Assembly: GCA_964586635.1 (NCBI GenBank)
Contig: CAZPGN010000001.1
Coordinates: forward strand, 11,087 to 70,931
Length of the DNA stretch: 59,845 nucleotides
Reading direction: 5' to 3'
From: an uncultured Candidatus Saccharibacteria bacterium
GTDB taxonomy: Bacteria > Patescibacteriota > Minisyncoccia > Phycocordibacterales > CAZPGN01
Below the pieces are notes generated by a model, which saw only the letters and a list, made by a program, of their open reading frames with translations, searched no databases and had not been told where the DNA came from. This document shows positions 5,769-47,109 of the stretch, one piece after another (within the stretch, counting starts at the first letter, position 1; each line of letters opens with the position of its first letter). The position numbers and the translations under genes were made by a program.

Positions 5769-6856
5769 CCGATAATGGCTATGACCATTCCAACCAGCGC
5801 CATGATAATACTAATAATCCAAAAACGCATGGTAACTTGGTATTCTGGCCAACCGAGCGCTTCAAAGTGATGGTGAATCGGAGCAACGAGAAATATTTTT
5901 TTCCCACGCAGTTTTTTTGAAAGAATCTGGAGTATAACAGAGCCAGATTCAACGAACAGCGGTAATGCGATAAGCGCGAGGGCTGGAACTTGACGCGTTA
6001 AAAAGGCGAATACGGAGAGCGTGACCGTGAGTCCGAGCATGCCTGTCTCTCCCATATAAAACCGCGCGGGCGGAATGTTGAACCAGAGGAATGCGAGGAT
6101 CGCTCCAGTAATGACGAGCGCAAGCGCCGCGAGATCTATTTGATCCTGAAAGAATGCGATGCCCGCGTAACCAACGAATGCCGAAGCCATTACTCCGCCG
6201 GCAAGACCATCGATGCCGTCAATCACGCCGCCCGAAAACAGAGCGAGTGTAACAACCATAAATAACGGCACAATGTAGAATCCGAGATCGTATGTCCCCG
6301 TAAACGGAATGGTCAAGGTCGAATAGCCTAACTTCGAGTAGAACCACCAGCCGCCAACGGCGCCAATGAATAGAACGGCAGTGATACGTTCAACGAGCGA
6401 TAGTCCACCAGCAACATAATTCCCTTTCCCGCGGATTACCAATATATCGTCTGCGAGGCCGACAAACGATGCGGCCAGAAGTGTAAACAATGGCAACCAT
6501 GTCTGGCTACGCGACAGAAAGTTCATTTTTTCAGTCAACTCTGTTGGCGACACTACGCCTATTATTGCGAATAGAATAATGGTAAATAAAGTACTTCCCC
6601 AGATAATAATGCCTCCCATACGTGGCGTGGTCGTCTCCTTCTGTTTGTGGAGTTTGTTGAATATCGGTGCACCGCCACCGCCGAGTGCCTGCGTTCGCGC
6701 CATTTTTTTCCACATCTTGTACTTGTAGAGTGATCGGGTAACAAGCGGGGTTATCAAAAGCCCGAAAAAGAAGGCCACAGCCATGGGAATCAGTATTTTT
6801 GCAACATTGATGGCGGTTGGCGCAAAAATCTTTATTACATTCCCGAGTTCGATCAT
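5765..6856 (-). CDS. mraY: Phospho-MurNAc-pentapeptide transferase
   Basis: TPRMGG, GLADD, DGIDGLA, FMGETG-like FYMGETG, APIHHHFE; start set at ATG 6856 (the track's TTG start is the -35 box). Confidence 0.95.
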   Translation of the reverse strand: MIELGNVIKIFAPTAINVAKILIPMAVAFFFGLLITPLVTRSLYKYKMWKKMARTQALGGGGAPIFNKLHKQKETTTPRMGGIIIWGSTLFTIILFAIIGVVSPTELTEKMNFLSRSQTWLPLFTLLAASFVGLADDILVIRGKGNYVAGGLSLVERITAVLFIGAVGGWWFYSKLGYSTLTIPFTGTYDLGFYIVPLFMVVTLALFSGGVIDGIDGLAGGVMASAFVGYAGIAFFQDQIDLAALALVITGAILAFLWFNIPPARFYMGETGMLGLTVTLSVFAFLTRQVPALALIALPLFVESGSVILQILSKKLRGKKIFLVAPIHHHFEALGWPEYQVTMRFWIISIIMALVGMVIAIIG

Positions 6857-6866
6857 ACTTGACCAA

Positions 6867-6895
6867 ATTATGGCAAATATGGCGAATATTAGCAA
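6867..6895 (-). promoter_or_regulatory. Sigma70-type promoter of mraY
   Basis: TTGCTA-17 bp-CATAAT, 10 nt upstream of the ATG; overlapped by CCATATTT(T)GC direct repeats. Confidence 0.55.
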
Positions 6896-6960
6896 AATAT
6901 GGTACCTTCTTTACGGATTGAGTCATTCCGAAGGATTCATGTTCGAATGAGGAGGAACTA

Positions 6961-7803
6961 ATGCAGGCATGCGAACATACTGAAAAGCACACTCTTTTCT
7001 GCGGACGAGTTTCAGTTTCGCTGTTTGGAGCGGGAAGGGACTGGAAATTGAGCGACCGCAGCACCGTCGCGACCATCTCAATGGCCGCACATATGTCAGG
7101 GGTCTGTCAGGTATATTCCCCTAACATATCGCAATTCAATGCCCGTATCTGCAAGCACGATGAACTAACTGAAGATGTGACTACCGGCATCGTGGACGCC
7201 AAGGTTCCGATATTTCGTGGCGCTCACGCGGATGGCGTTATCATCGGTCGGCGTTCTGCGTGTTTTCTGGCGACTGCTGATTGCCCCACTGTCATCATGT
7301 GGTCGCACGCGAAGCCGAACCTAGTGTGTCTTCATGCTGGCTTGCGCTCGCTCGTGGATTTCCGCCGTGTCGAAGAGGGCGCATCGAATCGTGTTCATGA
7401 GAGCGTGATTGATGCATCGCTCGAGCTTTTCGGGCGGGACAATGCCCACAAGGTGCATGTCCACGCTCTCTGCGGAATCGCAGCAGACAACTATTCATTT
7501 CCAGAAGACCATGCAGATTGGGGAGGATTCAACAGGAAACTGTTGAAGGCATTGAGAGAGATGAGCAATGGGTATGCTGACGGCGCGGTAAATGGCAACA
7601 GTATCTCACTCCCCCTTCTAATTCGAGCCCAATGCATGGCTCGAGGTGTTCGTGCCGACAGGATCAGTTGGGACACAATTGATACATACTCCGATAGAGA
7701 CCATATCGGTGGTTATCGCTGGAATAGCCATCGAAGGGAGAGGAACGGGGTCTCTTCCGTATATGGCAGGAATAACGGAGTTCTTGTGTCACGACTATGG
7801 TAA
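6961..7803 (+). CDS. Divergent YfiH/PgeF (laccase-domain, purine nucleoside phosphorylase-like) family protein
   Basis: ADGVII, TADCP, LHAG, LCGI, NNGVLV motifs with the His/Cys/His residues present; strong SD GAGGAGG upstream. Confidence 0.75.
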   Translation: MQACEHTEKHTLFCGRVSVSLFGAGRDWKLSDRSTVATISMAAHMSGVCQVYSPNISQFNARICKHDELTEDVTTGIVDAKVPIFRGAHADGVIIGRRSACFLATADCPTVIMWSHAKPNLVCLHAGLRSLVDFRRVEEGASNRVHESVIDASLELFGRDNAHKVHVHALCGIAADNYSFPEDHADWGGFNRKLLKALREMSNGYADGAVNGNSISLPLLIRAQCMARGVRADRISWDTIDTYSDRDHIGGYRWNSHRRERNGVSSVYGRNNGVLVSRLW

Positions 7804-10042: not shown

Positions 10043-11423
10043 TTCCCAAAACACGAATGCCTAGTTCTTGTAACTGCTCCGCCCCAGCCTCGGTCGGGCT
10101 ATCCATCATTAGATCGCGTCCGTCGCCTGTTTTTGGGAATGCGATAACTTCTCGGATATTCGGCTCATTGGCGAGGAGCATGACGAGCCGATCAAACCCG
10201 ATCGCGAAGCCGCCATGCGGCGGCACGCCGTAGGAGAACGCATCTAGCATGTGCCCGAATTTGGCTCGCACGGTGTCCTTACCATATCCGAGGAGAAGGA
10301 ATGCCCGTTCTAGAAGTTCAGGTTTATGATTTCTGATACTGCCGCCGGCAATCTCATAGCCATTAAGCACAAGGTCGTATTGCTCTGCGATGACGCCGCC
10401 AAGATCCGTGCCGTTTTCTGGCAATGTTTCCCCGCGCGGCATACTGAAAGGATTGTGCCCAAAGTCCCACTTTTGCTCCTTCTCACTCCATTCATAAAAT
10501 GGAAAATCAACTATCCATGCGAATGCGAGCTCGTTCGGGTCGCTTGTGTTGTTGCGCAGGTCGGGTCGATCGGTGCCGAATTTTTTCATAGACTCTGCGT
10601 GTGTGAGCCGAGGGAACGGAATATGTGATATATGCTTGTAGGGATAACAAGACGCCACAACATGCACCATAAGCTCCTCAAGCGCTCGCATGACATCATC
10701 ACGGTTTACAAAACTCATTTCAAGATCGACTTGCGTAAATTCTGGCTGTCGATCTCCGCGCGTATCCTCATCGCGGAAACATCGCGCTATCTGAAAATAT
10801 CTTTCCAGGCCAGCGACCATCAAGAGTTGTTTATACTGCTGGGGCGACTGCGGTAGAGCATAAAATGTACCGCGATGAATACGAGATGGTACGAGATAGT
10901 CACGCGCTCCCTCGGGCGTTGACTTACTTAGTGCGGGCGTCTCAACTTCGACAAAGCGGCGTTTTTTGAAAAAATCGGAGATTGCCGCGATGAGGTCGCT
11001 CCTCTGGCGCAAATTATTCAGCAACCGATGCCGTCGCAGGTCGAGATAGCGATATTTCATTCTTACTTCTTCACCTATCTCATATCCATCCGAGTTTAGC
11101 TCCATTGGCGGCGTCTCGGATTCCGAAAATACCGAGAGACCACTCGCCTGTATTTCATATCCGCCGTTCTTCTGCTCGTGATTGATCATGCTAGCGGGAC
11201 GCGGAGCAACCTTACCGCGCACCTCGACGACCCATTCACCTCGGAGTTTATCAGCGCCGTCACGAAGTTCCTTACCAGCAAAAACTACTTGACACTCTCC
11301 GCTCGCGTCTCGAAGATCTATAAAAATGAGCTTGCCATGATCGCGACGGACCGCAACCCAGCCGCATAACTTTACTACTTGGCCGACCTTGCTTCCTATA
11401 TCGCCTATATAAGTTCGTTCCAT
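10035..11423 (-). CDS. aspS: Aspartyl-tRNA synthetase, short form without the GAD insertion domain
   Basis: RRDHG, FIDLRD, LPQSPQQYKQ, FRDED.R.DRQPEF, PPHGGFA.GFDR; 462 aa. Confidence 0.96.
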   Translation of the reverse strand: MERTYIGDIGSKVGQVVKLCGWVAVRRDHGKLIFIDLRDASGECQVVFAGKELRDGADKLRGEWVVEVRGKVAPRPASMINHEQKNGGYEIQASGLSVFSESETPPMELNSDGYEIGEEVRMKYRYLDLRRHRLLNNLRQRSDLIAAISDFFKKRRFVEVETPALSKSTPEGARDYLVPSRIHRGTFYALPQSPQQYKQLLMVAGLERYFQIARCFRDEDTRGDRQPEFTQVDLEMSFVNRDDVMRALEELMVHVVASCYPYKHISHIPFPRLTHAESMKKFGTDRPDLRNNTSDPNELAFAWIVDFPFYEWSEKEQKWDFGHNPFSMPRGETLPENGTDLGGVIAEQYDLVLNGYEIAGGSIRNHKPELLERAFLLLGYGKDTVRAKFGHMLDAFSYGVPPHGGFAIGFDRLVMLLANEPNIREVIAFPKTGDGRDLMMDSPTEAGAEQLQELGIRVLGNE

Positions 11424-11432
11424 AAGTGGAGA

Positions 11433-12515
<1,083 letters not shown>

Positions 12516-36710: not shown

Positions 36711-39242
36711 CTAGGCAGATTTCTTTTTGAGGGCGCGTTTCAAATACTTCGCTGTATGTCCATTCCCTTCCAGCGCGACTTCTTCGGGTGTTCCTGCCGC
36801 AACCAATTTCCCGCCTCCCGCACCGCCCTCCGGGCCCATGTCAATTATATAATCGGCTGATGCGATGACATCCATATTATGTTCGATAGTTACCACGCTG
36901 TTCCCTTTATCTACGAGCTTCTGGAGCACCAAAAGAAGATTTTTCACATCATCATAATGAAGACCGATCGTCGGCTCGTCGAGAAGGTAGATAGTTTTCG
37001 CGATGTGTTGACGATACAATTCGGAGGCGATCTTGATGCGTTGACTTTCGCCGCCAGAGAGGGTGGTGGATGGTTGGCCAAGTTCGAGGTATCCAAGACC
37101 TACCTCCTCGACAACCTTCAGGCGGTCTGAAATCGCCGGAATATCTTCGAGAAAGGCATGGGCCTCCTCAACGGTCATCCGCAATATGTCATAGATGTTT
37201 TTATCCCGATATGCAATCTCGAGGGTTTCTTTCTCAAACCTTTTGCCGTGGCACACATCGCATGTTACATAGACTGTGGGCAAAAAATGCATCTCTACCG
37301 CAACAAGACCGTTGCCTTGGCATGCCTCACATCGCCCACCTTTCACATTAAAAGAGAAGCGTCCAGATTTCCAGCCACGCACGCGCGCCTCTGGCGTCGC
37401 GGCAAACAGATCTCGGATATGCGTCCACGCGCCGATGTAGGTTGCGGGATTTGAACGCGGGGTCCTGCCGATCGGCGACTGGTCTACTAGCACAACACGC
37501 GAGAGGTATTCGGCCCCGAGAAAATGCGCACAGTTATAGGTGTCATTACTCCGATACCGCCGCTCATATTTAGCTTGCAGATTCTTATTCAATATCTCAT
37601 AAAGAAGCGTTGACTTTCCTGAACCTGATACCCCGGTGATGGCGACGAATTGGCCAAGCGGCATGTCAAGCGAGAGATTTTTTATACTGAATATTTTCCC
37701 TCCACGAATCTTGAGTACCCCTTTATTCTTTTCGCGCCTTGCCTTCGGCATCTCTATTCTCTCTTCATCTCGCAGATATTTCAGCGTGCGAGATTCAATC
37801 ATATTCCGCTTCGCAGTGATTAGTTTTTCGGTCTGACCGGCGACCACAACATGGCCGCCATGTACACCCGCACCCGGCCCGATATCCACGAGATAGTCAG
37901 ATGCGAAAATAGTGTCCTCGTCATGTTCGACAACAATGATGGTATTGCCAGCATCCGCAAGTCCACGCAGGGTTTTAATCAGACGCTCGTTATCGCGCGA
38001 GTGCAAGCCAATGGTTGGCTCGTCTAATACATAGAGCGCCCCAACAAGACGCGAACCAAGCTGGCTTGCGAGTCGTATGCGCTGGGCCTCACCGCCAGAG
38101 AGAGTATGAGCGCGACGGTCTAGCGTGAGATATTCCAGGCCAACGCCCATCATAAATGCAAGACGACTTTTTATCTCCTTCGTAACTGGCAATGATATTT
38201 CCGTTTCCATCCTCGATAGTTTCAGCTTTTCAAAAAACGCATGCGCCTTCTCGATTGACAGCGAGGAAAGCTCTACGATATTTTTCCCACCTATTCGAAC
38301 GGCAAGCGCTTCTGGCCGAAGACGCTGGTTGTTGCATACCCCGCACAGCTCCTCGCCGAAAAAGTGCTTCGTGCCAAGTCCGTGACATTCAGGACATGCT
38401 CCATACGGCGAGTTGAAGGAAAACAGTCGTGGTTCGACTTCGATGAAGGAAAATCCATCTCTCGGGCAAGTAAATGAAGTAGAGAAAATCTTCTCCGAGC
38501 CATCAAGACGAACGCGCACGACCCCATCAGCCTCTCGCAAGGCGTATTCAACATCCTCTGTCAGGCGTTCGCGAAGTCCTTTCTCATTGCTTCCGTAATC
38601 GTCTGTATTCACCGTATCAATAACTACATCGATGTCGTGTTTTTTATTCTTATCGAGCACGATGCGTTCGCGAAGACTATGAACATTTCCTTCGATGAGC
38701 ACCCGCTGGTATCCTTTGCCGAGTAGGTCGTAGAGAAGCTGGTAATACTCCCCTTTTCTGCCGCGCACAACGGGCGCGAAGATGGCGACTGATTTTACGC
38801 CGTCTTTTTGAGCTCCTGCGGCAATGAAATTGACGATTTCTTCCTTGGAGACTCGGGTTATCGATTCCCCGCAAAGAAGGCAGTGTGGAACCCCAACTCG
38901 CGCATAAAACACGCGCATGTAATCGTATATTTCAGTTATCGTTGCGACTGTTGAGCGAGGATTGTTCGAGCGCGATTTCTGGTCAATTGAGATGGCGGGG
39001 GAAAGGCCGGTAATCTCATCCACATCGGGTTTTTGCATCTGGCGCAAGAATTGGCGCGCGTATGCGGACAAACTCTCTACATACCGCCGTTGACCTTCAG
39101 CGAAAATGGTGTCGAATGCAAGCGACGACTTTCCTGAACCCGAAAGTCCTGTAAAAACCACGAACTGATTTCGCGGTATATCAAGGTCGATATTCTTCAA
39201 ATTGTGCGTCCGAGCGCCCTTTATGCGAATTGCGTCTTCCAT
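36711..39242 (-). CDS. uvrA: Excinuclease ABC subunit A, lacking the insertion domain
   Basis: GARTHNLKN, two Walker A motifs (GLSGSGKSS, GVSGSGKST), LSGGEAQR/LSGGESQR; start at ATG 39242 (MEDAIRIK). Confidence 0.97.
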   Translation of the reverse strand: MEDAIRIKGARTHNLKNIDLDIPRNQFVVFTGLSGSGKSSLAFDTIFAEGQRRYVESLSAYARQFLRQMQKPDVDEITGLSPAISIDQKSRSNNPRSTVATITEIYDYMRVFYARVGVPHCLLCGESITRVSKEEIVNFIAAGAQKDGVKSVAIFAPVVRGRKGEYYQLLYDLLGKGYQRVLIEGNVHSLRERIVLDKNKKHDIDVVIDTVNTDDYGSNEKGLRERLTEDVEYALREADGVVRVRLDGSEKIFSTSFTCPRDGFSFIEVEPRLFSFNSPYGACPECHGLGTKHFFGEELCGVCNNQRLRPEALAVRIGGKNIVELSSLSIEKAHAFFEKLKLSRMETEISLPVTKEIKSRLAFMMGVGLEYLTLDRRAHTLSGGEAQRIRLASQLGSRLVGALYVLDEPTIGLHSRDNERLIKTLRGLADAGNTIIVVEHDEDTIFASDYLVDIGPGAGVHGGHVVVAGQTEKLITAKRNMIESRTLKYLRDEERIEMPKARREKNKGVLKIRGGKIFSIKNLSLDMPLGQFVAITGVSGSGKSTLLYEILNKNLQAKYERRYRSNDTYNCAHFLGAEYLSRVVLVDQSPIGRTPRSNPATYIGAWTHIRDLFAATPEARVRGWKSGRFSFNVKGGRCEACQGNGLVAVEMHFLPTVYVTCDVCHGKRFEKETLEIAYRDKNIYDILRMTVEEAHAFLEDIPAISDRLKVVEEVGLGYLELGQPSTTLSGGESQRIKIASELYRQHIAKTIYLLDEPTIGLHYDDVKNLLLVLQKLVDKGNSVVTIEHNMDVIASADYIIDMGPEGGAGGGKLVAAGTPEEVALEGNGHTAKYLKRALKKKSA

Positions 39243-39305
39243 ACCAATGCACGATTCCCCAAGATGATGCTTGGGGTTACTGTGTGAATATATCAAAGTT
39301 GCTCC

Positions 39306-39333
39306 AAAAAAGAAACCCGCCAAGGAGGGCGAG
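39306..39333 (-). terminator. Intrinsic terminator downstream of the tRNA-like gene
   Basis: CTCGCC-ctcctt-GGCGGG followed by TTTCTTTTTT. Confidence 0.75.
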
Positions 39334-39344
39334 CATAAACTTCT

Positions 39345-39419
39345 TCCCATCGGCAGGACTCGAACCTGCAACCTCCGATCTTTTTGAGATCGGTGTTCAG
39401 TCCATTGAACTTCGATGGG
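39345..39419 (-). tRNA. tRNA-like gene, identity undetermined (19-nt anticodon arm; A8, U21; no encoded CCA)
   Basis: CCCATCG-AA-GTTC-AATGGACT-GAAC-A-CCGATCTCAAAAAGATCGG-AGGTT-GCAGG-TTCGAGT-CCTGC-CGATGGG-A; all four stems fully paired. Confidence 0.8.
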
Positions 39420-39444
39420 CAGAAAGTCTTACAATGTATGTCTC

Positions 39445-39472
39445 ATTATATCCAATTTCGAATGAAAGTCAA
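39445..39472 (-). promoter_or_regulatory. Sigma70 promoter of the tRNA-like gene
   Basis: TTGACT-16 bp-TATAAT, ~25 nt upstream of the acceptor stem. Confidence 0.7.
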
Positions 39473-39565: not shown

Positions 39566-39910
39566 ATGGATATACAGATTCTTGAGAAACCAATAAGTAT
39601 TGATTCTGCTCGAGAATTTGGGGCACATTGGTACCCAGATTTCTTAAAGGGTTCAGTGGATATTTCAGAAAACAAAATTGCTCTTGGCGGTGATTATCAT
39701 ATTGAATCGGCAGAGCTCTTGGTGAAGCGAGGCTCAAGGCATGAAAATGTGTGGGGATTTAATATTCGCTTCGACGAAAAAGCATCGAAAATCGAATTTG
39801 ACTCTATGATAAACATAAAGCCGCAGTTTAACAATCGAAGCAGAATCATCACGAATGATGAAATCGCGCGCAAGGTCGAGAATATTGTTCGATCATGGAT
39901 TCTATTTTAA
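39566..39910 (+). CDS. DUF5674-like hypothetical protein
   Basis: KGSVDI, IALGGDYH, GS...NVWGFNI, IEFDSMINIKP..NNRS pattern recognised from memory; AT-rich. Confidence 0.7.
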   Translation: MDIQILEKPISIDSAREFGAHWYPDFLKGSVDISENKIALGGDYHIESAELLVKRGSRHENVWGFNIRFDEKASKIEFDSMINIKPQFNNRSRIITNDEIARKVENIVRSWILF

Positions 39911-39917
39911 TCCTTCT

Positions 39918-40223
39918 ATGCTGATCAAGGACGCTCTCTTTTATATGGCGAATGCGCATCCGGAGATCGGCAGAATGGCTGACGCAGAACAAGAAGGAGA
40001 TTTGAGGCGCGCGAACAATGCGCGCATGCGAATACTAGATATTATTGACTGCATTCTTTCGTTCGATACCATCTCGTTTGCGGCCCGCGAGGAATGGTCT
40101 GCTGTCAGAAATCTTATACAGGCGTACGAAATGCTTAGCATATTTGAGCAAAGTATAGTGAAGAATTACGCTGAACCGTTCGCTTTCAAATTTATGCGGA
40201 AATTAGAGTGCGGAGCTCTTTGA
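39918..40223 (+). CDS. Small alpha-helical hypothetical protein paired with the DUF5674-like gene
   Basis: ATG 7 nt after the upstream stop; MAN..PEIGR...YAEPFA pattern; 3' end overlaps the uvrB 3' end. Confidence 0.65.
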   Translation: MLIKDALFYMANAHPEIGRMADAEQEGDLRRANNARMRILDIIDCILSFDTISFAAREEWSAVRNLIQAYEMLSIFEQSIVKNYAEPFAFKFMRKLECGAL

Positions 40224-42213
40224 GCTCGTCCCGCAACACTGCTGCCGTCTCAAAATCGAGCGCTTTTACGACATCAGACATCTGGTCTTCTTTGTCTTTG
40301 ATAAGTTTCTTAAGTTCCTTTGGCTTGTCGGCGATCGAGGCAATATCAATGCCTGCGAGCAGGTGTCCTGCCTTTTCGTGTTCTGTTTGAATGAGGTCTG
40401 TAATATCAGAGATATTTTTCTTGATGGAGGCGGGCGTTACGCCATGCTTTGCATTGTAGGCGAGCTGTCGTTCACGGCGGCGATTAGTCTCATCAACAGC
40501 GGCTTTTATACTGCCGGTTATTTGGTCGGCATACAAGATGACGCGTCCTGCAACATTGCGCGCCGCGCGGCCGATGGTCTGAATAAGTGCGGTTTGCGAA
40601 CGAAGAAAACCTTCTTTGTCTGCATCTAAAATGGCGACGAGTTCTACCTCTGGCAAATCAAGTCCTTCGCGTAAAAGATTAACTCCGACTAGACAATCGA
40701 ATTCCCCTCTGCGAAATGCTGACAGTATTTTGATGCGCTCGATCGTCTTTATTTCTGAATGGAGATATTCCGCCTTGACGCCGCGCTCCTTAAGGTATGA
40801 TGACAGGTCTTCCGCCATTTTTTTCGTGAGAACCGTCACGAGCGTGCGGGCCTTGCGTGCTGTTACTTTCTCAACTTCCTGAATCATGTCGGCGATCTGT
40901 CCTGCATGCCCATCACGCTCCACGATCGGTCGTATGTCTAACAAAGGGTCGACAAGGCCTGTGGGGCGGATTATTTGTTCCACGATCTGTTTGCTCTCAT
41001 CGTATTCATAGTCGCCGGGTGTTGCTGAAGTGAATATCATCTGTCCGACAAGTCTCTCAAATTCTTCAAAGCGAAGAGGGCGGTTATCGAGCGCTGAAGG
41101 CAGACGGAAACCATGCTGAACGAGCGTTTGCTTGCGAGAGCGGTCTCCAGCGTACATTCCCGCGATTTGCGGAATAGTAACATGCGATTCGTCTACGACG
41201 ACAACAAAATCAGCCGATCCATCAGTTTTTTTCGGAAAATATGAAATAAGTGTATCTGGAGTTTCGCCGACCTTCCGTCCGGAAAAATGACGAGAGTAGT
41301 TTTCGATGCCAGAACAATAACCTGTTTCTTTCATCATTGCGAGATCGTATGTCGTTCGACGTCTAAGCCGCTCCGCCTCGAGCACTTTGTCTTCCTTCTC
41401 GAGTTCGGCGAGACGACCCGCAAGCTCTTCGCGAATGGAATCAAACGCACGTTTTTTCATATCTTCCGGCATTACGAAGTGCTTTGCGGGAAAGATAAAG
41501 ATAGAATCTTCGACCCGAATAACGCTTCTCGTGATCGCGTCAATGCGACGGATACCCGCAATATGCTTTCCAGCAAGCGTTATCTCTATAATTTCATTTT
41601 CCGAGGCGGGCATTATCTCTATGACAGATCCATGTGTCCGAAATGTGCCGGGCTTGAGGTCTGCATTAGTTCGTTCGAAATATATACCAACAAAGGCCTT
41701 CAGCAGACCAAGTCGCTCGAACTCCTCTCCAACAACGAGGCGAAGATTGCTCGCGAGATATTCCTCCGGACTGCCAAGGCCATAAATGCACGAAACCGAT
41801 GCGACGACAATGACATCGCGGCGGGTGAGCAGGGCCTGTGTCGCTCCGTGCCGCAGACGCTCTATTTCCTGATTTATCTTCGCATCTTTCTCGATATATG
41901 TATCGGTAATTGGTAGATATGCTTCCGGCTGATAGTAATCATAATATGAGACAAAATAGTGAACTGCGTTGTCAGGGAAAAAGTCGCGGTATTCCTGCGC
42001 GAGTTGTGCGGCAAGCGTTTTGTTGTGAGCAATGACAAGCCCTGGTTTGCCAATTTCAGCTATGACTTTAGCGGCGGTAAATGTCTTGCCAGAACCAGTT
42101 ACCCCAAGCAATGTCTGCTTGGCAAATCCACGCCGCAAGCCATCAGCAAGCGCGCGTATCGCCTGCGGCTGGTCGCCGTCAGGTTTGAATTGTGATGATA
42201 ATTTAAATTCCAC
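40192..42213 (-). CDS. uvrB: Excinuclease ABC subunit B
   Basis: GVTGSGKT, YYDYYQPEAY, VDESH, LLREGLD, QTIGRAARN, C-terminal UVR; GTG start. Confidence 0.97.
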   Translation of the reverse strand: MEFKLSSQFKPDGDQPQAIRALADGLRRGFAKQTLLGVTGSGKTFTAAKVIAEIGKPGLVIAHNKTLAAQLAQEYRDFFPDNAVHYFVSYYDYYQPEAYLPITDTYIEKDAKINQEIERLRHGATQALLTRRDVIVVASVSCIYGLGSPEEYLASNLRLVVGEEFERLGLLKAFVGIYFERTNADLKPGTFRTHGSVIEIMPASENEIIEITLAGKHIAGIRRIDAITRSVIRVEDSIFIFPAKHFVMPEDMKKRAFDSIREELAGRLAELEKEDKVLEAERLRRRTTYDLAMMKETGYCSGIENYSRHFSGRKVGETPDTLISYFPKKTDGSADFVVVVDESHVTIPQIAGMYAGDRSRKQTLVQHGFRLPSALDNRPLRFEEFERLVGQMIFTSATPGDYEYDESKQIVEQIIRPTGLVDPLLDIRPIVERDGHAGQIADMIQEVEKVTARKARTLVTVLTKKMAEDLSSYLKERGVKAEYLHSEIKTIERIKILSAFRRGEFDCLVGVNLLREGLDLPEVELVAILDADKEGFLRSQTALIQTIGRAARNVAGRVILYADQITGSIKAAVDETNRRRERQLAYNAKHGVTPASIKKNISDITDLIQTEHEKAGHLLAGIDIASIADKPKELKKLIKDKEDQMSDVVKALDFETAAVLRDELKELRTLISA

Positions 42214-42247: not shown

Positions 42248-44224
42248 TTATGCGTCCACTGTTGCCAATTTTGCGTTCGTTTGAATGAAAAGCTTGCGTG
42301 GCGCCACTTCAGAGCCCATGAGAACATTGAATGTCTTATCGGCCGCCTCTGCGTCCTCGACAGTAATGCGTTTTAGTACTCGCGTTTCGGGATTCATGGT
42401 CGTTTCCCACAATTCATCCGGATTCATCTCTCCAAGACCCTTGTAGCGTTGGATTGAATAGGCAGAGGCATCTCGGCCGACTATTTTTTCTTTCTGGCTA
42501 TCACTATATGCATAATTCACTTCCTTGCCTTTTTTAATTTTATACAGTGGCGGTTGTGCGATATATATATTGCCCGAGTCAATGAGCGCACGGAAGTATC
42601 GGTAAAAGAGAGTAAGCAGGAGCGTCCGAATGTGTGCGCCGTCAACATCAGCATCGGTCGCAATGATTACTTTATGATATCGAAGCTTTTCGATCTCAAA
42701 TGTATCGCCAATCGCGGTACCAAGGGCGATAATAAGAGACTTAATCTCTTCAGATGAAAGCATTTTATCGAGGCGAGCTTTCTCAACATTTAGAATCTTA
42801 CCCTTGAGCGGCAGTATTGCTTGGGTGCGGCGGTCCCGTCCCATTTTACTTGATCCTCCAGCGCTGTCCCCCTCTACTATGAACAGCTCGGCTTCGTCTC
42901 TGCTGCGAGTCTGGCAATCAGCAAGCTTGCCGGGGAGCGTCATACCTTCGAGCGCGCCTTTACGGAGCACAGTTTCCTTTGCCGCTTTCGCTGCCTTTCG
43001 AGCGCGCATCGCAAGCAGTATTTTGTTTATAATTGCGCGGGCATCTTCTGGATGTTCTTCGAGATATATGCCAAACGCGTCACTAAAAACAGATTCCACC
43101 GCAGTCCGTGCTTCGGGACTTCCGAGTTTTGCTTTGGTCTGTCCTTCAAATTGCGCATTCTGCATTTTTACCGATATGACCGCTATAAGTCCTTCACGCA
43201 CGTCCTCGGCAGTGAATGCGTCACCGTCCTTCTGGCTTATATTTTTCTTAGCATAGGCATTAAGCGTGCGTGTCAACACGGCGCGAAATCCAGTCAGATG
43301 CATGCCGCCTTCTGGCGTAGCTGTGTTGTTCGCAAAACTAACCTCCCTGCCTGTAATATCATCGATATACTGTAGCGCAATCTCAACGAAGATATTTTCC
43401 TGCTCTTTGTCTACATAAAAAATAGAACGATTTATCGCCTTTTCACCAAGATTATAAAAATTGATGAGCGACAATAATCCTCCCTCAAAATAAAACGAAT
43501 GCAATGGAACATCGACCGCGAGGTCTTTAAAATAAAAAACTGAATCAATCTTTTTTAACGCGCCATTAAGATCCGCATCGCGGGCATCTAGTATGCGTAC
43601 GCGGAGTTTCTTAGTCAGATACGCCTGTTCGCGCAGATGATTGATGATACGGTGGCGGTCAAATTCAAGAGCAGAGAAGATCTCCGGATCTGGCTTGAAT
43701 AGGACAATGGTGCCGTGCTTTCTAGATGCGCTCACTTTCTTCACCGCCGAAACCTTCTTGCCGCGCCGATATTCCTGCATATACAAACCTCCATCCCGAT
43801 GCACGAATACTCTCATCCACTCCGAAAGCGCGTTTACCACAGATGCGCCTACGCCATGCAGGCCTCCCGCGATTTTATAACTTTCAGAGTCGAACTTTCC
43901 ACCGGCGTGAAGAACGGTCATAACAGTCTCGAGTGCGGACACTTTTGTTTTTTTATGGACATCAATGGGTATGCCTCGGCCATTGTCAGCGACTCGAACA
44001 ACGCCGTCAGGGAGTAATGCAACTTCCACTTCATCTGCGAATCCTCCCATCGCCTCATCACGGCCATTGTCAAAGATCTCGACAAGCATGTGATGCAAGC
44101 CATCGGGCCCTGTCGAGCCGATATACATGCCGGGCCGCTTACGAACAGCCTCAAGCCCTTCAAGCACCGTGATTTGTTCGGCCCCATACAATGGGGCCTT
44201 TTTCGACACTTTTCTTGCCGCCAT
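42248..44224 (-). CDS. gyrB: DNA gyrase subunit B
   Basis: EAVRKRPGMYIG, DNGRGIP, GGLHGVG, EGDSAGG, PLKGK, DADVDG, RYKGLGEMN. Confidence 0.97.
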   Translation of the reverse strand: MAARKVSKKAPLYGAEQITVLEGLEAVRKRPGMYIGSTGPDGLHHMLVEIFDNGRDEAMGGFADEVEVALLPDGVVRVADNGRGIPIDVHKKTKVSALETVMTVLHAGGKFDSESYKIAGGLHGVGASVVNALSEWMRVFVHRDGGLYMQEYRRGKKVSAVKKVSASRKHGTIVLFKPDPEIFSALEFDRHRIINHLREQAYLTKKLRVRILDARDADLNGALKKIDSVFYFKDLAVDVPLHSFYFEGGLLSLINFYNLGEKAINRSIFYVDKEQENIFVEIALQYIDDITGREVSFANNTATPEGGMHLTGFRAVLTRTLNAYAKKNISQKDGDAFTAEDVREGLIAVISVKMQNAQFEGQTKAKLGSPEARTAVESVFSDAFGIYLEEHPEDARAIINKILLAMRARKAAKAAKETVLRKGALEGMTLPGKLADCQTRSRDEAELFIVEGDSAGGSSKMGRDRRTQAILPLKGKILNVEKARLDKMLSSEEIKSLIIALGTAIGDTFEIEKLRYHKVIIATDADVDGAHIRTLLLTLFYRYFRALIDSGNIYIAQPPLYKIKKGKEVNYAYSDSQKEKIVGRDASAYSIQRYKGLGEMNPDELWETTMNPETRVLKRITVEDAEAADKTFNVLMGSEVAPRKLFIQTNAKLATVDA

Positions 44225-47033: not shown

Positions 47034-47109
47034 TGGAGCCGCCTCGCGGGCTCGAACCGCGGACCTATAGTTTACAAAACTATTGCTCTACCAACTGAGC
47101 TAAGGCGGC
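47034..47109 (-). tRNA. tRNA-Thr(TGT) with encoded CCA
   Basis: Canonical 76-nt cloverleaf; anticodon arm ATAGT-TT-TGT-AA-ACTAT; U73; CCA. Confidence 0.97.

Follow-up and report, generated by a model that had tools for sequence, protein, structure and literature searches.

An apparently conserved tRNA-like gene with an overlong anticodon arm upstream of uvrA in a Candidatus Saccharibacteria bacterium

We describe a small gene upstream of uvrA in a 59,845-nucleotide (nt) stretch of contig CAZPGN010000001.1, from an uncultured Candidatus Saccharibacteria bacterium (GCA_964586635.1). This whole stretch is called the window here. The gene encodes an RNA with the cloverleaf of a transfer RNA (tRNA) and an anticodon arm of 19 nt, where the canonical arm has 17 (a stem of 5 base pairs (bp) and a 7-nt loop). 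It appears to be a conserved, non-standard tRNA-like RNA rather than a sequencing error or plain decay. This is supported by the structure of the RNA, by its expression signals, by its reproducibility across assemblies and by a second genome that has this unusual design in the corresponding place. For its function we tentatively favour a maintained tRNA mimic, processed like a tRNA but not decoding normally, and we judge this to be a little short of an even chance.

Results

A tRNA-like gene with an anticodon arm of 19 nt

The window gene is 75 nt long and lies on the minus strand (Table 1). ARAGORN, which the earlier note had named as a way to an isotype, calls it tRNA-Phe with the anticodon aaa at position 35. 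Against the Rfam tRNA model RF00005 it scores 54.1 bits (E 6.9e-09), above the gathering score of 29 that is the family threshold. The alignment to the model is regular except for 2 nt inserted in the anticodon loop. The sequence parses as CCCAUCG AA GUUC AAUGGACU GAAC A from the acceptor to the D arm, and as CCGAU CUCAAAAAG AUCGG AGGUU GCAGG UUCGAGU CCUGC CGAUGGG A from the anticodon arm onward. This gives a 7-bp acceptor stem, a 2-nt connector, a 4-bp D stem with an 8-nt D-loop, a 5-nt variable loop and a 5-bp T stem. All 21 stem pairs are Watson-Crick. The elbow is intact, with G18G19 in the AAUGGACU D-loop, and with the T-loop UUCGA, G53-C61 and A58 in the T arm GCAGG-UUCGAGU-CCUGC; A15/U48 is also present. 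The universal core U8/A14/A21 is not kept and reads A8, A14, U21. The discriminator is A73 and is followed by AGA, so that CCA is not encoded. A tRNA-Thr(UGU) gene 7.6 kb away (47034-47109) does encode CCA.

The long arm can be read in more than one register. With a 5-bp stem the 9-nt loop reads U33-CAA-A37, and with a 6-bp stem the loop reads C33-AAA-A37. Folded in isolation, the 19 nt close to 7 bp around the 5-nt loop CAAAA (-8.2 kcal/mol, z = -4.5). A near-consensus promoter precedes the gene and a terminator follows it, and the inferred start gives a leader of about 19-20 nt. An earlier description of this gene, made from the letters of the window alone, proved accurate throughout, coordinates included, for the cloverleaf, the arm, A8, U21, the missing CCA, the promoter and the terminator.

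The arm is reproducible. Contig JACOVY010000015.1 from a metagenome-assembled genome (GCA_016177055.1) and two independent Logan assemblies of different runs (SRR12113385 and SRR12113431) are 100% identical over 6.4-6.9 kb, and all three have the same tRNA-like gene with the same 19-nt arm. Because the three are identical, the A5 run in the loop is not an indel artefact. The earlier note had raised an indel error as a concern, and independent assemblies do not correct the loop to standard length. We therefore rule out an assembly artefact for the window gene; the pair of genes described next was likewise confirmed in a second assembly.

The same design at the same locus in a second genome

Four UvrA clusters are 75-78% identical to the UvrA of the window, and all others are at most 71% identical. 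Three of these four close relatives are readable upstream of uvrA; the contig of the fourth, P0006, is too short there. In L004 (UvrA 78%) and L005 (76%), uvrB is followed directly by uvrA, and ARAGORN and Rfam both find the uvrB-uvrA spacer free of tRNAs. In L133 (GCA_030698975.1, UvrA 75%), two adjacent tRNA-like genes, L133A and L133B, lie upstream of uvrA, and the Logan assembly L134 confirms them. The order at this locus is the terminator of the preceding gene, a TTGACA-16-TAATAT promoter, the two tRNA-like genes, a spacer of about 100 nt, a terminator and the uvrA-leader hairpin. The more distant relatives L137 and L138 (UvrA 70-71% identical) have no tRNA upstream of uvrA. An ordinary tRNA at this site in relatives, which the earlier note had considered as evidence for decay, was not seen: the site is empty or has the same non-standard arm.

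L133B is also 75 nt long and shares the layout of the window gene. It parses as GGACCUG AU GCUC UGUAGGGU GAGC G, followed by UUAGG GUUAAAAUC CCUAA AGGUC GGAGG UUCGAUU CCUCC CAGGUCC A from the anticodon arm onward. A8, U21, A73, the lack of CCA and the 19-nt anticodon arm are common to both RNAs (the core of L133B is A8, U14, U21), and ARAGORN again calls Phe(aaa). The two sequences agree at 36 of 75 positions (48%). All 22 pairs, including a sixth pair in the anticodon stem, are standard in both. Between the two RNAs 14 pairs have changed on both sides and none on one side only. Since the changes are all two-sided and the pairs all standard, decay is argued against. L133B is thus the kind of homologue with compensatory changes that the earlier note suggested looking for in related genomes. 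The view taken there, that the gene is not in simple decay, gains from a second copy at the same place upstream of uvrA that keeps the same deviations. The shape appears to be under selection, and the sequence appears to be free.

It seems unlikely to us, for the same reasons, that the gene is a relic, in which a tRNA gene that may have come from a phage or mobile element lost its function through an insertion of 2 nt and lingers in a variable spacer. At 52% divergence, neither genome has a mismatch in its 21-22 stem pairs and all 14 changes are compensatory, which does not fit such a history. Nor do the near-consensus promoters and terminators retained in both the window and L133, or the finding of the same rare design twice. 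Small genomes of this kind are also not expected to keep dead genes long. What a relic would explain is the patchy distribution, with the gene in two of the four genomes readable upstream of uvrA (the window and the three relatives), and the several departures from the universal tRNA core (A8, U21 and C1). It would also suit a uvrB-uvrA spacer whose content is different in each relative, and a similar odd tRNA-like gene in a phage-like contig, L071, that related phages have not kept.

The spacer holds a DUF5674 gene and an orphan open reading frame (ORF) in the window, a Na/Ca exchanger gene and a hypothetical gene in L133, and an unrelated hairpin RNA in L004. This last RNA, at about 7830-7945 of L004, is some 72 nt long. 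A 12-bp stem (GGUGUCGGGGGC...GCCCCCGACACC) closes it, a terminator comes next, and no family in Rfam matches it.

L133A (5616-5690 of L133) lies 7 nt upstream of L133B. ARAGORN calls it tRNA-Met(cat), and it scores 41.6 bits with Rfam. Its discriminator is C, and its first acceptor pair is C1-G72. G33 and C37 stand in its anticodon loop CGCAUCG, which is predicted to close further, leaving a CAU triloop on a 6-bp stem. Here too the anticodon would be buried, and we count this in favour of a mimic.

The register of the arm and the question of isotype

The only stretch of loop conserved between the window gene and L133B is U-Y-A-A-A-A (UCAAAA and UUAAAA, respectively). The bases that close the inner 7-nt loop are C-G in the window and G-C in L133B. 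With just two sequences, this switch weakly favours a 6-bp stem with a 7-nt loop, which is also the register chosen by ARAGORN. In this register the inner loop of L133B, UUAAAAU, is fully canonical (U33-AAA-A37). In a third related RNA, from L071, C and U stand at the sixth-pair position and the pair is not formed. The 6-bp register, one of those proposed in the earlier note, has a closing pair that covaries between the window and L133B and is absent from L071. The two sequences would fit equally well with a loop of 9 nt in which U33 is followed by CAA or UAA, then by A37 A38 and two extra bases.

No parent isotype can be named, since the nearest phage tRNAs by blastn, both weak matches, are tRNA-Trp for the window gene and tRNA-Phe for L133B. 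Hints in the earlier note of an Arg-like A20 and a Pro-like C1-G72 did not carry over to the family, as L133B has G20 and G1-C72. We count this difference at the identity-type positions 1-72 and 20 in favour of a mimic. Synthetases, the elongation factor and the ribosome leave the sequence of an ordinary isoacceptor almost no room to vary, and little change is expected at such a distance. A sequence that has been rewritten while its shape was kept, together with a longer arm that is not compensated, therefore argues against an ordinary isoacceptor.

A working non-standard decoder is a separate matter. It could be AAA on a 6-bp stem reading UUU, or a 9-nt loop read as YAA (UUR, Leu) or as an expanded YAAA or YAAAA (UUUR or UUUUR, shifting the frame). 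The ARAGORN call of Phe(aaa) in both genomes and the conservation of U-Y-A-A-A-A as the sole loop segment speak for this, as do the U33 and A37 that the 6-bp register gives L133B, the retention of A73 and an intact elbow, and the tRNA-Phe affinity of L133B in blastn. The loops of tRNA-Leu(UUR) have U33, then CAA or UAA, then A37 A38, and the 9-nt register has the same in both RNAs. Loops of 9 nt are moreover the format of engineered five-base decoding. Against it, the RNAs have none of the compaction known from natural tRNAs with 6-bp stems (with a 2-nt connector and a variable loop of 5 nt), and the window copy has C33 in the 6-bp register. We know of no use of A34 in bacteria outside tRNA-Arg(ACG) and a few exceptions. 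Body similarity is inconsistent, Trp-like in the window and Phe-like in L133B, and the gene is absent at the locus in L004 and L005.

Coding in the window points the same way. The earlier note had linked enlarged loops to frameshift suppression. No split or frameshifted gene was seen in the 60 kb of the window, which is densely coded, and no gene there was found to need a shifted reading. Of the 378 in-frame UUU codons in the window, 73 are followed by U, so that an efficient UUUU reader made from a strong promoter would be harmful, with all 73 sites at risk. On balance we think a decoder improbable. A bolder form, a natural decoder with a lengthened arm in some Patescibacteria, would have either a 6-bp stem with an unmodified AAA, or a 9-nt loop that reads UUUU(R) as a codon of four or five bases where a few sites are programmed for it. 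We regard that as very improbable. If true, bacteria would have a natural example, conserved on the chromosome, of decoding that is non-triplet or geometry-shifted.

One candidate site for shifted reading was seen at 39896-39925, where the DUF5674 gene (ORF1) ends in CUA UUU UAA and ORF2 lies in the +1 frame, so that UUUU reading would fuse both. We rejected it. The fused query matched two homologues only, both of ORF1 alone; ORF1 is complete, covering 107 of 109 Pfam DUF5674 positions; and L133 does not have such a gene pair.

Searches beyond the locus

The genome and metagenome scans required exact matches to fixed patterns and would miss diverged members. A pattern of the exact loop plus T-loop had no Patescibacteria match in 185,579 species genomes (GTDB, one per species, the window's own genome absent). 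Apart from noise, it matched tRNA arrays with normal 7-nt CUCAAAA loops, archaeal tRNAs that contain introns, and a single tRNA-like family of Bacteroidota. In viral contigs it gave 23 matches, none of them tRNAs. A pattern of the T arm and variable loop matched 57 ordinary tRNAs of many isotypes in viral contigs, so this part of the window gene is generic. A pattern of the D arm plus T-loop found one clear analogue (L071) and one partial analogue (L074, the same as L075) in Joint Genome Institute metagenomes, and in viral contigs it found L075 only. We found no description in the literature searched of a conserved bacterial tRNA-like gene with such a design.

The L071 gene scores 48.7 bits with the Rfam tRNA model and has A8, A73 and a 5-bp stem with the 9-nt loop CACUAUGGU, a likeness partly forced by the search pattern. 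The gene is preceded, at a distance of 6 nt, by a TGnTATAAT motif. An RNA-ligase gene is immediately downstream of the tRNA-like gene and RtcB is 5 kb upstream, and the contig looks phage-derived. No phage found to be related to L071 through its RNA ligase has this tRNA-like gene. RtcB, a degenerate tRNA-like element, the tRNA-like gene with the 9-nt loop and the phage-type RNA ligase stand in a row, in a neighbourhood that resembles an RNA-repair locus (5992-7158, 11865-11954, 12173-12247 and 12428 to the end). The partial analogue (L075, the same as L074, 5239-5311; IMG/VR UViG_3300002168_000016) is viral and tRNA-like. It has A8 and an anticodon arm of 16 nt, and flanking pairing (CGUGU...ACACG) extends its acceptor helix.

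A covariance model built from the window gene, L133B and L071 gives its own members about 90 bits and ordinary tRNAs at most 57 bits. It also matches tRNA-like units downstream of tRNA-Val in two Crocinitomicaceae genomes. The units stand in tandem (L040 2604-2677 and 2715-2799; L060 6917-6990 and 7076-7139) after tRNA-Val(tac), and every one has its own terminator behind it. Their T arm and acceptor 3' strand are taken over from the tRNA-Val, and one unit has G3-U70. In place of the anticodon arm they have a 21-nt hairpin, UCCCGA-CU[G/C/A]AAAAA[G/A]-UCGGGA. The lineage is an unrelated one, and its arm is likewise overlong and rich in A.

Many tRNA genes serve as attachment or recombination sites. 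The window gene could in principle be such a site, present or former, at the level of DNA, which would account for the varying genes of the uvrB-uvrA spacer. The Crocinitomicaceae tandem units, with their similar long hairpin downstream of a tRNA-Val, are compatible with this, and a Bacillus cereus pseudo-tRNA, tRNAOther, flanks an island (PMC3399842). There is, however, no integrase or other mobility gene near the window gene, and a search of the 60-kb window for att-type repeats of either tRNA half, with up to three mismatches, found none. The extra segment is shorter than 1 kb, and the strong promoter and terminator would be left unexplained. We consider a DNA-level role very unlikely.

Two further kinds of site came up in these scans. 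tRNA genes packed into arrays, as many as 33 within 8 kb, occur in Pyrinomonadaceae/Acidobacteriota (L032, L035, L038, L039, L044, L047, L048, L052, L053, L055, L058, L059 and L064) and in Gemmataceae (L034). They include 'tRNA-Leu' genes of 74-78 nt (caa, cag, taa) that have no long variable arm, tRNA-Thr(agt) and several members with A8. Position-8 statistics from the tRNAs in the fetched loci are not a clean control, because array tRNAs and boundary offsets dominate them. A motif, (A)AAAGU.A.AAU.GGCAG ... ACCUCAAAAAGUUU ... GGUUCGAYUCC, is common to three phyla (L029 5274-5306, Leptospirillum; L046 7938-7970, Bdellovibrionales; L054 527-559, Anaerolineales), and ARAGORN calls neither a tRNA nor a transfer-messenger RNA there.

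Locus and transcription unit

In the direction of transcription the gene order is uvrB (40192-42213), two small ORFs on the opposite strand, the tRNA-like unit, the leader hairpin, uvrA, uvrC, rpsP, a KH-domain gene and trmD. The small ORFs are DUF5674 (39566-39910) and the orphan ORF (39918-40223); Pfam, defence and phage links were sought for the small ORFs that neighbour the window gene, and none was found. GC content is 0.489. The closest UvrA homologues and the short housekeeping genes point to a Parcubacteria-type member of the Patescibacteria. The start of uvrA is at 39242, and a long ORF at 36711-39371 that overlaps the tRNA-like gene is an artefact of ORF listing.

Table 1. Features of the tRNA-like unit and its surroundings in the window (all lengths in nt unless given otherwise)
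Feature	Position	Strand	Basis or remark
Sigma-70-type promoter TTGACT-16-TATAAT	39445..39472	-	11 of 12 matches to consensus
5' leader of the tRNA-like gene	39420..39438	-	RNAfold of the whole unit
tRNA-like gene, no encoded CCA	39345..39419	-	ARAGORN, Rfam, three identical assemblies, covariation with L133B and L071
Overlong anticodon arm CCGAU-CUCAAAAAG-AUCGG	39375..39393	-	5 bp + 9-nt loop, 6 bp + UCAAAAA, or 7 bp + CAAAA
Intrinsic terminator: 7-bp stem (39334-39315), 6-nt loop, T-run	39305..39334	-	Read in the sequence
Hairpin CCCCAAG..CUUGGGG in the uvrA leader; conserved locus edge, context outside the RNA gene	39257..39276	-	Also in L004, L005 and L133
uvrA, 843 amino acids, immediately downstream; synteny anchor	36711..39242	-	Homologue comparison

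In the predicted fold of the whole unit, the acceptor helix would be lengthened by pairing between the 5' leader and the 8 nt at the start of the 3' trailer; this pairing is not conserved in L133. The uvrA-leader hairpin, in the form CCCCA(N)..UGGGG, stands just upstream of uvrA in all four related genomes (the window, L004, L005 and L133) and is possibly a regulatory element. In the window it is preceded by TGaTATATT (39287-39295), a motif resembling an extended -10 element.

Two differences were seen elsewhere in these genomes. Downstream of uvrC, L133 has a Fic-domain protein (10134-11036) that matches the PADLOC candidate-defence models PDC-S04 and SoFic; the window has rpsP there. GyrB of the window (42248-44224, 658 amino acids) is without an intein, and GyrB of L005 (934-3642, 902 amino acids) has the intein domain PF14890.

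Discussion

The window gene would, as a tRNA mimic, produce a tRNA-shaped small RNA derived from a class I tRNA, with separate and strong transcription predicted from its promoter. With the acceptor/T minihelix and the D/T elbow intact, the RNA should be a substrate for RNase P, for the enzymes that trim 3' ends and for the CCA-adding enzyme. The arm would be one bp too long, with a 6-bp stem and a 7-nt loop U-Y-A-A-A-A-N able to close into a 7-bp hairpin. This overlong arm and the departure from U8/A21 would most likely keep the RNA from ordinary decoding on the ribosome. Likelier roles would be those of a tRNA-binding partner or decoy that titrates a tRNA-recognising factor, of a regulator or, possibly, of an aminoacyl carrier outside translation.

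Several points weigh against a mimic. Only two chromosomal members of the family are known, and L004 and L005, which are equally close, do not have the gene at this locus; it is therefore dispensable or mobile. The inner loop UUAAAAU of L133B, canonical at U33 and A37, suits a real decoder. A comparison of the neighbours in the window and L133 gave no partner protein conserved beside the tRNA-like gene, so that no specific role outside translation can be named.

The gene matters in practice because tRNA finders call it 'tRNA-Phe(AAA)', which may mislead tRNA censuses and the inference of genetic codes in candidate-phyla genomes. To our knowledge, the AAA anticodon is not normally used by bacteria. 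If the RNA is a mimic, it would add a conserved, strongly expressed tRNA-shaped RNA to minimal genomes, in which each gene that has been kept is telling, and its target might lie among the synthetases, modification enzymes, nucleases or transferases. As a decoder, it would show how far ribosomes in nature put up with a longer anticodon arm, which bears directly on work with expanded codons.

Among known systems, anticodon stems of 6 bp occur naturally in tRNAPyl, tRNASec and mammalian mitochondrial tRNASer(UCN). These compensate for the extra pair by a 1-nt connector, a short variable loop or altered acceptor and T lengths, and they have stop-codon or otherwise defined anticodons and dedicated partner enzymes. 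The best-fitting register for the window gene and L133B, a 6-bp stem with a 7-nt loop, is that of these tRNAs. Unlike them, the window gene is without compaction (2-nt connector, 8-nt D-loop, 5-nt variable loop, 7/5 acceptor/T), it has no CUA or UCA anticodon in register, and its neighbours are uvrA, uvrB, uvrC, DUF5674 and the orphan ORF.

Classical frameshift suppressors (sufD, sufA6, sufB2 and sufJ) are mutants with a single-base insertion, which gives an 8-nt loop on an otherwise normal isoacceptor. A natural anticodon loop of 8 nt is found in yeast mitochondrial tRNAThr (PMC7609411). The window gene shares with the suf tRNAs and with engineered five-base decoders an enlarged loop on an intact cloverleaf, and its 9-nt register keeps U33 and an A after the anticodon. 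It is unlike the suf tRNAs in that its expansion is 2 nt, is accompanied by A8, U21 and C1, is conserved between genera, and comes with no evident parent isotype and with no target site found in the 60 kb of the window.

Some phages have tRNAs whose anticodon loops are altered and thereby evade the anticodon nucleases of the host (PMC10264068). The likeness lies in variation of the anticodon loop in otherwise good tRNAs, and L071 is phage-like, with an RNA ligase adjoining and RtcB near. The nuclease-escaping tRNAs, however, keep 7-nt loops on 5-bp stems and still decode, and the window gene is chromosomal, among core repair genes, with no defence or counter-defence gene beside it. The non-proteinogenic tRNAGly of Staphylococcus reportedly serves cell-wall synthesis and is said to have changes at translation-relevant positions and a normal anticodon arm. 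The window gene is likewise altered at such positions; no Fem-type or similar transferase is linked to it.

The nearest described case is tRNAOther of B. cereus. Its anticodon arm is reportedly of normal length, and the window gene differs from it in the 19-nt arm, A8 and U21. The pseudo-tRNA carries the Trp anticodon CCA, is poorly charged and not found on polysomes, has regulatory effects and works outside translation (PMC3399842). Both RNAs are tRNA-shaped and separately expressed (by prediction for the window gene), both depart from conserved tRNA positions, and both adjoin variable DNA.

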